64,000 nt of DNA from Octopus vulgaris. Lineage: Eukaryota. The notes beneath the pieces were generated by a model. It saw only the letters and a program-made list of their open reading frames with translations, was not told the origin of the DNA and did no database searches. Below, piece after piece: positions 10,228 through 51,244 of the stretch. Location of the stretch: the NCBI GenBank assembly GCA_951406725.2, contig OX597816.1, positions 75,888,001-75,952,000 of the forward strand, in the 5' to 3' direction. The position numbers were made by a program, and so were the translations under genes. Every line of letters begins with the position of its first letter. Position 1 is the stretch's first letter.

Positions 10228-10400
10228 ACACATATATAGAACAGACTTCCTTCAGTTTCCGTCAACCAATTCCACTGAAATGCTTCTGGTCGGCCGAAGG
10301 CTATAGTAGAAGACGCTTGACCAAGCTATTACGATGTGGGACTGAACCCGGAACCATGTGGTTTGGAAACATGCTTCTTAGCACACATCCACGCCCGCGC
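9985..10400 (-). mobile_element. SINE family B, diverged copy
   Basis: Colinear with 9040-9425 and 47227-47632. Confidence 0.85.
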
Positions 10401-10401
10401 C

Positions 10402-10480
<79 letters not shown>

Positions 10481-47226: not shown

Positions 47227-47632
47227 ACTCTTTTACTCTTTTACTCTTTTACTTGTTTCAGTCATTTGACTGCGGCCATGCTGGAGCATCGCCTTTAGTC
47301 GAGCAAATCGACCCCGGGACTTATTCTTTGTAAGCCCAGTACTTATTCTATCGGTCTTTTTTGCCGAACCGCTAAGTGACGGGGACGTAAACACACCAGC
47401 ATCGGTTGTCAAGCAATGCTAGGGGGACAAACAAAGACACACAAATATATATACACACACACACTTATATATATATATATATACATATATACGACAGGCT
47501 TCTTTCAGTTTCCGTCTACCAAATCCACTCACAAGGCATTGGTCGGCCCGAGGCTATAGCAGAAGACACTTGCCCAAGATGCCACGCAGTGGGACTGAAC
47601 CCGGAACCATGTGGTTGGTTAGCAAGCTACTT
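47227..47632 (-). mobile_element. SINE family B, 3' part (split by an insertion)
   Basis: Stops at GTTAGCAAGCTACTT; the rest of the tRNA head resumes at 49834. Confidence 0.92.
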
Positions 47633-49833
47633 TATTTCAAAACATTTGCCATAAAGGCAGTACACAGATTAAGTTAGCTTTGCGGGCTGGACGAGGACAT
47701 TAATGAAGTGAATGATAATGAAAGAAAGATGATAAGGATGGGAGAAGACAAAAAGCGCCCGCCGACTTTCGCTTCTCTAAAACATTGTTCTTTTTAAGGA
47801 TAAACACAAAACGAGGTATTAAACCTCTTACAATTTTTCCAATTTTTGGATTTAGCAGTCCATTATTAATAAAAATAAACACAAAACGAGGTATTAAACC
47901 TCTTACAATTTTTCAATTTTTGAACTTAGCAGTCCATTACTAATAATAACAGTTCAATAATTACATATCGTCCTCGAAGTCACTTGTGCCCGCGCCCTCC
48001 ACCATCAATCACGCCTCCCTCAGAACGTAATCAAGTTCCGAGTCAGCGTCGCTCGGGACCAAGTTATAGTCTTCCTTGAGCTCCTTTAGCCCAAGCGTCA
48101 CGTCGAACGTCACGGCCTCCACAGCTACCTGCGGAGGCCATTCGGGGTCCTGTGTGAAGGCTAAAGGTGCTCCCTTGTGATGCTCTTCCATCACTTTTTC
48201 AATTTCTCCTCCTCTATAGAAGAGGACCAATACGTTCAGTTCTTTCGGTGGCGGCACAGTTCCCGCCAACGGTATTCCTTCTCTTGTCGGTGGCACAACC
48301 CCAACCGACGTAGTTCCGGGACATTCCGGTGCTACACTGACAGTCGGTAATGTCCCGTTTTTCTTCCTCTTTTTCTTTTTTTTCCCTTTTCAACTAGGGA
48401 GGGTGCGTCTACTCCGTGGCTGGAAGATTCGCCTTCCTCTCTTCATCCCTATTATCCTTTGGTGAGCACCCATTGTTGCTCACCTTCCTCTTTCGGCCTC
48501 TGTTTGAGGAGTCCTCTGCTTTCTCGGCCGTTATCATTCCCTCTTCTAGAGGGGTTTTACTTAACTGTTCCGGGATCCTATTTTGTTCCCGGGGCCAGTT
48601 CTTCTTTATGTGGCCGGACTCCAAGCACCGATAACACTTAGGGGAGCGACCCTCAAGCATCACCGGGTACCTGCACCCGGCCATTTTCAAAAAATCTGGA
48701 AGAACCAGATTGGCTGATTGGGTCCACAGGGTCAAAATTGCTTTTGACCCAACCCAAGCAGCCGCAGGAAGAACTTTTACATTAAGGAGCTTAGTTTCGC
48801 TGCCACCCAGACCCCGGCGGATAGTCTCCTCTATCCACTCGGGTTCTATGTCGGGTGGCAGGCCGCAAATCCAAGCTTTCATCAATTTCTTTTTTTTGTA
48901 CGTGGGCAGGAATAAGATTTCCTTACCCTCCAGGGGTTTGCTAGCAAATTTGCAAGCCTCTTCAGGGGTGTCAAATAGCAACCACACCGTTGCATATTTG
49001 ACACCCCTGGAAATGAATTTAATTGTTGGCAAATACTCTTCCAACTCCTTTTCAATTGCCGTCTTTTCGAATAGGGCGATGGTGTCGAGTGCCTTGGAGT
49101 AGGTTCTCAACACCACCGTCCTATCTTCACGGTCTTTTAACCACTTTTTAGGCGGTATGATCTCCCATTCCAAAAGTTTGTTATTTTTCGTTGTCATGTT
49201 TTGTTTTTTTTTGTTTCTTTTTTGTTTTTTTTTTAAATGTATTCAGAATAAAACTAAAAAACGAGAAGAAAAGGAAATCCGAAGAAAGTCACAGTGAAAA
49301 AAGGAGAGAGTCAAATAAAGTTAAAAAGAAAGTCAAATAAAGTTAAAAAGAAAGTCAATAACACAGCAAAAACCTTCTGGCCATTTGGTACTCCCGGCCT
49401 AAATTGAACCAGGAACGCACAACTTCCACAAAAATTGGTGTAAAATTGGTAAAACTTGTTCAAACTTCGGAGGCAAAATACTCCCCTATATAGCAGTTTT
49501 CACAAAAAGTTCTTTACAGCACAATACAATTCTCACAATTACGTGAAAAAAATATTCACTCAATTTATCGAAGACGGATACGCCCCTCCACTGTTTTTTT
49601 TTCAATGAACACAAAAACGGCAGCCGCCGAGAGCAGGCGAAATTGTCTCAGAGTTGGACACAACTTACTGAAATAATAATTGGCACGCAATAAATTATGC
49701 CCAACTCACAATAAACAAAATCCCTTACCTCGACAACTTTCCGTTTTTGGTCTTTTTTCTTTAATTGGACGGAGCTGGTTGACTCGCGTCCACTCTGGCT
49801 GAACAGGAAGCAACTGACTAACTGCGCATGTGT
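47633..49833 (-). mobile_element. ORF1-only (gag-like) non-autonomous retroelement with a 15-bp TSD
   Basis: TSD GTTAGCAAGCT(A/G)CTT at 47618-47632 and 49834-49848; ends ...GAAATAAA; no RT or endonuclease. Confidence 0.82.
48009..49197 (-). pseudogene. Tx1/L1-type ORF1 protein (RRM-like region + zinc knuckle), one frameshift
   Basis: ORF 48409-49197 has GLPPDI..EWI and LEGRSPKCYRCLESGHIKKNW (CCHC with the last C>W). One indel near 48412-48445 joins it to ORF 48009-48296 (~395 aa in total). Confidence 0.78.
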
Positions 49834-49871
49834 GTTAGCAAGCTGCTTACCACACAGCCACTCCTGCGCCT
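49834..49871 (-). mobile_element. SINE family B, 5' head remnant
   Basis: Minus strand AGGCGCAGGAGTGGCTGTGTGGTAAGCAGCTTGCTAAC. Confidence 0.9.
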
Positions 49872-49874
49872 ATA

Positions 49875-51244
49875 TATATTTATATATATTTGGCGGGGAA
49901 TTTGTATTTTATTTGTATTTTATAAATTTAAATTCTTATAATCTTATGTTTTTGTATTACATTTCAGTCTTATTTCTCGACTGTATTCCATTACATAAGC
50001 TTTGCCTCCACATATATTTCAATGTACTTTATAATACATTTTCTTTTCTTCAAGCATCACTCATCATTCTGTATCAATCTGTATCGTCAAGTTTCATTCG
50101 TCATTTTGTATCGTAAAAACTGTTGCCTATAAGGCGGAGAGCTGGCAGAATCGTTAGCACGCCAGGCGAAATGCTCAGCAGTATTTCGTCTGTCGCTACA
50201 TTCTGAGTTCAAATTCCGCCGAGGTTGACTTTGTCTTTCATCCTTTCGGAGTCGATTAAATAAGTACCAGTTACACACTGGGGTCGATATAATCGACTTA
50301 ATCCGTTTGTCTGTCCTTGTTTGTCCCTTTTGTGTTTAGCCCCTTGTGGGTAGTAAAGAAATAGGTATTTCATCCGTCTTCATGTTCTGAATTCAAATTC
50401 CATACAGGTCGACTTTGCCTTTCATCGTTTTGGTGTCGATAAAATATGTACCAATTGAGTACTGGGGTTAATGTAATCGACTTATCTCTCTGTTAAAATT
50501 GCTTGTCTAGTGCCAAAATTTGAAATCAATAGTTGCCTATTTATATTATTATACTAGTATAACGGTCTTCGAATTATTGCTCTATTGCATATTAACTCAT
50601 CTATACTTCACACATAAATTTCATCCAGATCACACTTCTATTCTTATGGAACTTCACCTCTTTCATGAAAGCCTACTTACACTCAGAACATAGTCTTTAA
50701 TATGCAGAACCAAATAATTGCTTCTAAAAATAAATATGTGAATAATAGATGTTATTACAATTTAATAATCTCACTAGCAATTATATTTCTGAACATTATA
50801 ATCGAAAATATCAATCCTGATATATAACATATTTTGCTCCTTGCTTTCTAGATTCTCCTAATGTATACAAATCAATACTATTGTTCTTTACACCAAAAGT
50901 AATACTAACATATAACTTCACTGTAATGTAAAACATAGTACTTTATCACTACTACAGTTAACTATTTTTATCTTTACATAATATATTTCAATGTACTTGA
51001 TTTTGCATTAATACCCTACAGCTTTTTATTATCTTTCGTATTCTATTCTTTGCATTTATTTCCAAATATATAAATGTCGCCTTAGGTTGTTTACGGAGAT
51101 ATCTGGATGTAAACTGTATTTTTCTTATCGAAAGTGAAATTCTACAATACCAGTTACTGTACATATAAGTTTTAAAATATTTTTCCTCAGCCGTATATCT
51201 TGATAGCTTTTTTATGTATATTCCCCGCCAAATATATATAAATA
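49875..51244. mobile_element. AT-rich element bounded by inverted repeats, hosting a SINE
   Basis: TATTTATATATATTTGGCGGGGAAT (to 49901) / ATTCCCCGCCAAATATATATAAATA (from 51220). Confidence 0.5.
50131..50531 (+). mobile_element. SINE family A, full dimeric copy with a 9-bp TSD
   Basis: TSD GTTGCCTAT at 50122-50130 and 50532-50540. Confidence 0.92.

Follow-up and report, generated by a model that had tools for sequence, protein, structure and literature searches.

ORF1-only retrotransposons at a fixed site of an octopus SINE and their likely helper, a full-length L1/Tx1-group element

LINEs that keep ORF1 and lack ORF2 occur in the L1, Jockey and CR1 clades, namely HAL1 from mammalian L1 (with a Transposase_22-type ORF1), HeT-A from Jockey and Ag-Sponge from CR1 (PMC5786205, PMC5753468, PMC13534243). 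Likewise, several Tx1 elements target other transposons: Xenopus Tx1 inserts in Tx1D, Tx1-9_AMi in Harbinger, Tx1-8_Crp in LTR elements, and crocodilian Tx1-Mar in Mariner-N4_AMi, with SINEU-3 as its passenger; specificity set by the endonuclease (APE) is the accepted determinant (PMC4494074). In Octopus vulgaris, a repeat annotation reports 13 recently active L1-Tx1 families at ~5.4 kb per insertion; its library may well contain the sequences described below, and the accessible part of the article uses neither the word ‘target’ nor ‘ORF1’ (PMC13282606). While ORF1-only LINEs and transposon-targeting Tx1 elements are thus already known, their combination on a SINE target, together with a 3′ UTR motif complementary to that target, appears new to the literature that we found. 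Judged mostly by titles and the beginnings of abstracts, and with Repbase and Dfam outside the comparison, this literature held no description of a SINE-targeting L1/Tx1 element, of the ORF1-only/SINE-target combination or of the complement motif, nor is the octopus family described in the accessible parts of PMC5035012, PMC4758252, PMC8869645 or PMC6895275.

The window, a 64,000-nt stretch of O. vulgaris contig OX597816.1, contains at 47633–49833 (minus strand) an insert that interrupts a SINE, parting its A-like from its B-like box (Table 1), and would therefore likely silence that SINE copy. As originally predicted, the SINE is split at exactly 47633/49833, a 15-bp direct repeat with one mismatch flanks the insert (49834–49848 and 47618–47632), and ORF2 is absent. 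On the minus strand, a 636-nt leader (~640 nt had been claimed) precedes an ATG at 49197, a single reading frame and a 3′ UTR of 328 nt, not ~375 nt as first proposed. The frame, initially read as ~395 aa with one frameshift, comprises 412 codons (49197–47961) with two premature stops and one frameshift relative to the intact copy L025 (412 aa); its two pieces show 95% and 91% identity to that copy. Of the presumed CYRC..GH zinc knuckle, the CCHC knuckle holds up, with the last Cys reading Trp in this copy; Pfam zf-CCHC gave E-values of 0.058 for the window copy and 0.0066 for L025 (both under the curated cut-off), and 2e-5 for the partner ORF1 introduced below. The letters AATAAA are found at the 3′ end but straddle the junction, as the element ends in GAAATA and the next A’s belong to the target; no copy whose 3′ junction was displayed had a poly(A) tail. 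The Inr-like TCAGTT is likewise present (49812–49817), but an unlikely start site, because the copied 5′ end extends ~16 nt beyond it and other subfamilies lack it at their 5′ ends.

Table 1. Coordinates of the window insert, its target SINE and the third-type loci (window positions unless a contig is given).
Feature	Position	Strand	Basis
Target SINE 5′ head (A-box-like part), upstream of insertion point GGT^AAG	49849..49870	-	Sequence; head shared by 79,500 exact empty sites
5′ direct repeat: ~9–11 bp true duplication plus element-borne target-like end CTAAC	49834..49848	-	Junction comparison
5′ UTR, 636 nt, varies among subfamilies; TCAGTT at 49812–49817	49198..49833	-	Copy comparison
ORF1, 412 codons in intact copies; here two premature stops and one frameshift	47961..49197	-	Comparison with L025
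Predicted RRM 1, aa 14–102	48892..49158	-	AlphaFold model, mean pLDDT 81; best match La RRM, Z 9.9, rmsd 2.6, 81 aligned
Predicted RRM 2, aa 103–183	48649..48891	-	AlphaFold model; fold match Z 7.7, rmsd 2.5, 73 aligned
CCHC zinc knuckle, aa 187–202; last Cys lost in window copy	48592..48639	-	Pfam zf-CCHC
3′ UTR, 328 nt, ends GAAATA, without poly(A)	47633..47960	-	Copy comparison
75-bp tandem duplication in 3′ UTR	47800–47949	-	Sequence
3′ UTR motif complementary to target; one bulged A in window subfamily	47671..47683	-	Sequence and folds
Short terminal hairpin, alike in the 3′ ends of partner and ORF1-only elements	47647..47659	-	Sequence; covariation test weak
3′ direct repeat, recipient SINE target sequence	47618..47632	-	Junction comparison
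Remainder of target SINE: B-box-like motif, body, microsatellite, tail	47228..47617	-	Sequence
Third-type locus L248	C2:91184090-91190310		
Third-type locus L253	C2:100596121-100602341		
Third-type locus L186	C1:37806203-37812423		

A DNA search of the 2.8-Gb genome with the insert alone as query yielded 3,262 candidates, of which 40 were scored; the top ones were 97–98% identical over the full length. In each of the 30 best copies fetched, GAAATA is followed by the same target; 29 of them run on into the SINE tail, and the 3′ end of one (L013) runs into another element. The exact 27-nt 3′ end occurs 216 times in the genome and continues with AAAGTAG in 211 cases, and at least one of the five misses (L030) is on target with a point change; with three edits allowed, all of 30 sampled 3′ ends were on target. 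Exact junction counts gave 703 filled and 79,500 empty sites for the main SINE variant, and 158 filled and 5,693 empty sites for a second, older-looking one (AAGAAG...GCTTCC), with reversed-pattern controls at zero. The ORF1-only element is site-specific: it sits at GGT^AAG, one fixed point within the head of a SINE that is abundant in octopus. The expectation of copies sharing both ends yet having different target site duplications (TSDs) was borne out for copy number and ends, but all copies sit at the same SINE position. The original prediction overlooked this specificity, as well as an ORF1+ORF2 partner at the same site and the partly element-borne nature of the repeat. Readings of the insert as single-copy sequence or a host gene were rejected, and an LTR or proviral reading was rejected because of the lack of LTRs, the 5′-truncated copies and the APE-RT partner.

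The target SINE is a candidate member of the tRNA-derived/CORE class (OR2-like), with A- and B-box-like motifs recognised by eye and a segment, CCTTGGGCAAG, that resembles the CORE/Ceph motif quoted in PMC5786205. As to its tRNA of origin, Rfam gave no hit at the one locus submitted and ARAGORN none at 24 loci. The window harbors a further, decayed empty copy of the AAGAAG variant at 10330–10402 (minus strand).

Many copies at one position might conceivably stem from a single entry into one SINE, after which SINE and insert were amplified as a unit by the SINE’s own LINE. Such a composite SINE would explain the identical junctions in every copy and why filled tails (mean p-distance 0.060–0.074) are more alike than those of empty SINEs (0.11; 23/30), and some 4.2-kb dimers with a common upstream subfamily could indeed have moved as a unit. 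However, among ORF1-only copies with usable tails (26/30), mean p-distance was 0.025 for the insert (over its last 900 nt) vs 0.074 for the SINE tail, and the two did not track each other (Mantel rho −0.29, p 0.98); the corresponding values for the partner (19/25 copies) were 0.012 and 0.060 (Mantel p 0.30). Flanking tails that are 3× more diverged than the inserts (3–5× with the partner included) argue that the copies inserted independently. Moreover, one and the same insert subfamily is found in GCTAAC, GCTTAC and GTTTAC SINE variants, the partner—with different UTRs—occupies the same site, and short 5′-truncated copies (51–490 nt) have their own junctions there, whose duplications range from none (L183) to 15 bp and which often show microhomology (L206, L215, L220, L237, L254). 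Given the tail divergence and the separate junctions of the truncated copies, a composite SINE is already largely refuted, and we give it almost no credence.

The partner came to light as an ORF2 C-terminus at four of the first 30 filled sites, whose extension gave a 5.44-kb element encoding, in copy L156, an ORF1 of 466 aa and an ORF2 of 1,133 aa. Pfam detects Exo_endo_phos, RVT_1 and zf-RVT in the sister copy L092, and the best solved-structure match of the partner ORF2 is L1 ORF2p (E 1e-66, vs 1e-19 for R2). With an N-terminal APE, an RT closest to L1 and a C-terminal zinc motif, the partner has the features of the L1 group and is, as judged from its sequence, an L1/Tx1-group APE-RT element; no named Tx1 reference was present among 120 listed homologs, in the cluster look-up or among the atlas names. 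Full-length copies, 98–100% identical, made up 23 of the 25 scored candidates, the 3′ ends were on target in 25/25 distinct loci, and ORF2 was unbroken in three of the 22 loci with listed frames. Another 20, more divergent relatives (best ORF1 piece 48–59%) include 18 with ORF2 and 15 with a SINE junction at one or both ends; three begin with the GCTTCC variant.

The partner shares the site with the ORF1-only family, the two elements resemble each other in their last ~35 nucleotides, and they occur in mixed tandems, which would fit mobilisation in trans with the partner as the likely helper. As the two ORF1 proteins are only 30% identical (over ~195 aa) and BLASTN finds no DNA match between the elements—their likeness being confined to those last ~35 nucleotides—the argument rests on the common site and the short 3′ end. 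We consider it very probable that the window insert is a copy of an ORF1-only non-LTR retrotransposon at a fixed SINE site, likely placed there via target-primed reverse transcription (TPRT) through the partner’s ORF2 protein.

We took a census of the first 80 of the 703 filled sites, each with 5.8 kb of upstream sequence, and found 56 ORF1-only-type ends, 16 partner-type ends, three of a third ORF1-only type and five unassigned. ORF2 was present in 14/16 partner-type copies, whereas among the 56 ORF1-only-type copies, 42 had ORF1 within 2 kb and none had ORF2 near the 3′ end. An ORF1 tree of 62 rows (pieces aligned over <125 aa left out; midpoint-rooted, bootstrap unconverged) separates 35 rows without ORF2 from 26 rows, 24 of them with ORF2, at a support of 100/100, and L248 stands apart; the 35-row side includes an O. 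sinensis protein and the hand-labelled L251, whose ORF2 is that of its tandem neighbour. The ORF1-only copies form an old clade of many subfamilies, ~30% identical to the helper ORF1.

The ORF1 of this family is under purifying selection. Pairwise dN/dS against L025 over the N-terminal 205 codons ranged from 0.07 to 0.44 in 26 between-subfamily pairs with finite dS—values biased downwards by the window filter—and was 0.12, 0.17 and 0.29 in the three pairs that cover the full 205. Among 56 young copies, with CpG sites left out, dN/dS was 0.71 for private changes vs 0.12 for changes common to three or more copies (P 8e-6), and the C-terminal half gave 0.71 vs 0.27 (P 0.025); 11 of the 56 retain an unbroken frame. 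The earlier proposal, that of an L1/Tx1-group family which is mobile, non-autonomous and limited to ORF1, is supported by copy number, shared ends, lack of ORF2 (0/56) and selection. One might still suppose that the copies are recent internal deletions of an unsampled autonomous element and that ORF1 conservation merely reflects autonomous ancestry. Since searches score the best 150 candidates, a rare autonomous clade member could escape, and two third-type loci, L248 and L253, do look like a separate ORF2 loss. Against this supposition, which we hold to be quite improbable, stand the missing ORF2 in the census, the sole ORF2 fragment among 30 protein-hit loci (L075), which lies upstream on the opposite strand, an ORF1–3′ UTR layout common to subfamilies that are saturated at synonymous sites, and selection that shows in changes common to copies of the young, ORF2-less family.

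The third element type occupies the same SINE site (L248, L253, L186, L289, L290, L297 and L298). It has its own 3′ UTR, lacks ORF2, and carries an ORF1 closer to the partner (33–41%) than to the window family, which likely represents a second, independent loss of ORF2. At the L186 locus, a 3-kb insert (L093:3090-5500) contains two serial ORF1-like frames—window type, then third type—ahead of one 3′ end, and may be a fusion or a tandem with a lost junction. Besides, L187, L233, L241, L027, L209 and L234 are apparent recombinants that combine one subfamily’s 5′ UTR with the young family’s 3′ part (94% over at least the last 640 nt), three of them also carrying that subfamily’s ORF1 N-terminus; 5′ UTR swapping was frequent among the 30 best copies.

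We compared 85 paired junctions, 59 of them within five young subfamilies. The 5′ side read CTAAC in 39/39 young-subfamily junctions with a GCTAAC target, and also in 13 of the 15 with a GCTTAC or GTTTAC target, the two exceptions being members of an older subfamily. The join falls at about base 9–11 according to junctions like TTTGCTAAC and TGTCTAAC, and L017 and L179 have private variants, at positions 11 and 8, that both sides share. Hence, of the supposed 15-bp TSD, ~9–11 bp are a true duplication, whereas the 5′ copy ends in an element-borne, target-like CTAAC. Other subfamilies begin with CTTAC or CTTCC. The retention of CTAAC against other targets and the subfamily-specific starts argue that the RNA likely has its start within the upstream repeat and brings target-like bases along. 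The ten head-to-tail tandems, including partner/ORF1-only mixtures in L161, L251 and L280, fit a target rebuilt by this 5′ mimic. In L008/L094, L090, L210 and L255, 4.2-kb dimers or tandems join an upstream element with the same 3′ end type to a member of the young family; they could stem from tandem insertion that recurred or from a dimer that moved as a single RNA. At L029, two target copies precede the element, first a complete one of 16 bp and then one of the element type, either because the RNA began at the repeat’s first base or because the site had previously been duplicated. At the SINE site of L031/L181, an unrelated fragment with an RT lies ~30 nt upstream of an element’s 3′ end.

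Near the other end, ~45 nt (ORF1-only) or ~75 nt (partner) before the terminus, the 3′ UTR carries a reverse complement of the target core in the form AGCTAC or AGCTTC. From 109 ends, seven were dropped because the stretch under consideration reached the SINE head; of the remaining 102, 49 had a perfect complement of at least 7 nt, vs 3.0 expected from shuffles. ORF1-only copies in the T variant of the SINE had TAC in 43 cases, TTC in none and neither in 11, as compared to one, six and three in the A variant; the partner counts were 19/0/5 and 0/2/1. In helper and ORF1-only lineages alike, the motif thus differs in step with the SINE variant, with a Fisher P of 1e-8 (obtained over a shorter stretch and inflated by copy relatedness) behind which may lie as few as two evolutionary switches, as the copies are related. 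The third type has the motif in one of seven copies, arguing that it is not essential. In most examples displayed, folds of single sequences pair the motif across the junction, while RNAalifold yielded no consensus structure from 27 3′ ends in a MAFFT alignment that scatters gaps through the motif, and two-sided changes in the inner hairpin did not exceed shuffles (84/500) in a weak test with a wrong fourth pair. The motif is likely a sign of RNA pairing during insertion. The 3′ UTR of L156 also holds TTTGTCTGTCCTTGTTTGTCCC, which recurs in the window’s other abundant SINE (50300–50345); common ancestry of that SINE segment and the partner’s tail is possible.

Two partners for such pairing come into question, given real site specificity. 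The motif might pair with the displaced top DNA strand and assist target opening, since it has the sequence of the primer strand, differs with the target (43:0 vs 1:6 in ORF1-only copies, 19:0 vs 0:2 in partner copies) and varies in its distance from the end (~45 and ~75 nt). An intramolecular stem with read-through SINE bases, however, accounts for this pattern too and forms in single-sequence predictions, the motif is absent from most third-type copies, and APE specificity alone is accepted in Tx1 (PMC4494074). Pairing with DNA hence seems unlikely to us, if well within reason; we prefer pairing with read-through RNA, a preference between readings that genomes cannot separate.

Insertion could then proceed as follows. 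The element’s own ORF1p would coat its RNA in cis, which would explain selection on ORF1, and the partner ORF2p would bind the shared last ~35 nucleotides, its endonuclease nicking the target bottom strand at TT/A. The RNA likely extends into downstream SINE bases, which would anneal to the nicked primer and thereby yield a tail-less, base-exact 3′ junction, with the complement motif keeping these read-through bases in a stem until exchange. At the other end, the cDNA would anneal to the target overhang via the copied CTAAC in full-length copies or via chance microhomology in truncated ones, and the 5′ mimic would rebuild the target for further head-to-tail insertion. Target-like RNA bases that anneal to the target have been proposed for SART1Bm and R1Bm, where RNA–target pairing likewise explains exact 3′ junctions; their motifs correspond in sense to the target’s top strand, in contrast to the internal 3′ UTR motif in octopus, which is the reverse complement and varies with the target (PMC7265360). 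A bolder and rather doubtful extension is that the LINE RNA helps to read the target, a guide-like 3′ UTR complement pairing with the displaced strand and read-through bases with the primer strand, and that helper and parasite each retuned motif and 5′ mimic as the SINE changed (GCTTCC, GCTTAC, GCTAAC). If true, SINE, SINE-targeting LINE and half-LINE would make up a three-tier system with partly RNA-programmable targeting, and if the motif contributes to target choice, the system would be a candidate for retargetable RNA-templated insertion.

Similarly to the transposon-targeting Tx1 elements, the octopus system comprises an APE-RT element, a fixed target inside a transposon and a non-autonomous passenger with the same target. 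It differs in that the target is a SINE head—the targets named in PMC4494074 being DNA transposons, LTR elements, snRNA/5S genes and microsatellites—and in that the passenger is a protein-coding ORF1-only lineage instead of the non-coding SINE of the crocodilian system. The SINE head thereby appears to join the list of exact L1/Tx1-group targets. Several hundred same-site insertions with varied elements and targets provide a natural data set on APE-type TPRT that addresses two open steps, 3′ end registration without poly(A) and 5′ end joining. Dictyostelium TRE5-A.2 is, like the octopus family, an ORF1-retaining, ORF2-deleted passenger of a site-selective APE element; it differs in being a close deletion derivative of its helper and in inserting position-specifically upstream of tRNA genes via protein tethering.

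With HAL1, HeT-A and Ag-Sponge, the family has in common that it consists of ORF1 only and that ORF1 is kept; those elements are mobilised in trans, as the octopus family probably is; ORF1-only lineages that spawn new ORF1-only families recall the Drosophila telomeric elements, and head-to-tail arrays recall HeT-A. The octopus element departs from these three in the two RRMs and CCHC knuckle of its ORF1, in its sequence specificity for a dispersed SINE and in the lack of poly(A). It is HAL1-like in being multi-copy, with shared ends, an ORF1 under purifying selection and no ORF2, but not HAL1 proper, which derives from mammalian L1 and has a coiled-coil/RRM/CTD ORF1. The link to HAL1 drawn at the outset accordingly holds for the ORF1-only kind and is an analogy, because the ORF1 is of the RRM+CCHC type and not of the mammalian L1/HAL1 type. 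As a long-lived lineage under selection, the family extends ORF1-only LINEs to the L1/Tx1 group in a mollusc.

An ORF1 model built from a 32-row alignment (pLDDT 81) predicts two RRMs ahead of the CCHC knuckle; a single-sequence fold of the 412-aa protein (pLDDT 36) was discarded. A profile search against solved structures returned nothing under E 0.45, no L1 ORF1p chain was among the fold matches listed for the model, and Transposase_22 was not listed in the Pfam scans. The protein thus appears, on the strength of the model, to be a type I ORF1 (RRM plus CCHC knuckle), a type linked to Tx1 in non-mammalian animals (PMC5203782), and type I ORF1 and target sequence preference, both seen here, are features of the Tx1 clade. 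An Octopus sinensis protein (63%) is the sole full-domain homolog of the ORF, and in the wider ORF1 family, the relatives with names are from Octopus and Argonauta. Contigs of four sequencing runs from four organisms cover 26–30 of 30 bins; RNA ends and strand are not visible there. ORF1 pieces are also annotated as octopus genes (P0180, P0121, P0182, P0185 and P0201, one of them named EPM2A-interacting 1-like) or fused to WD40 or C2H2 domains in the predicted proteins P0292 and P0324—probable gene-model artefacts.
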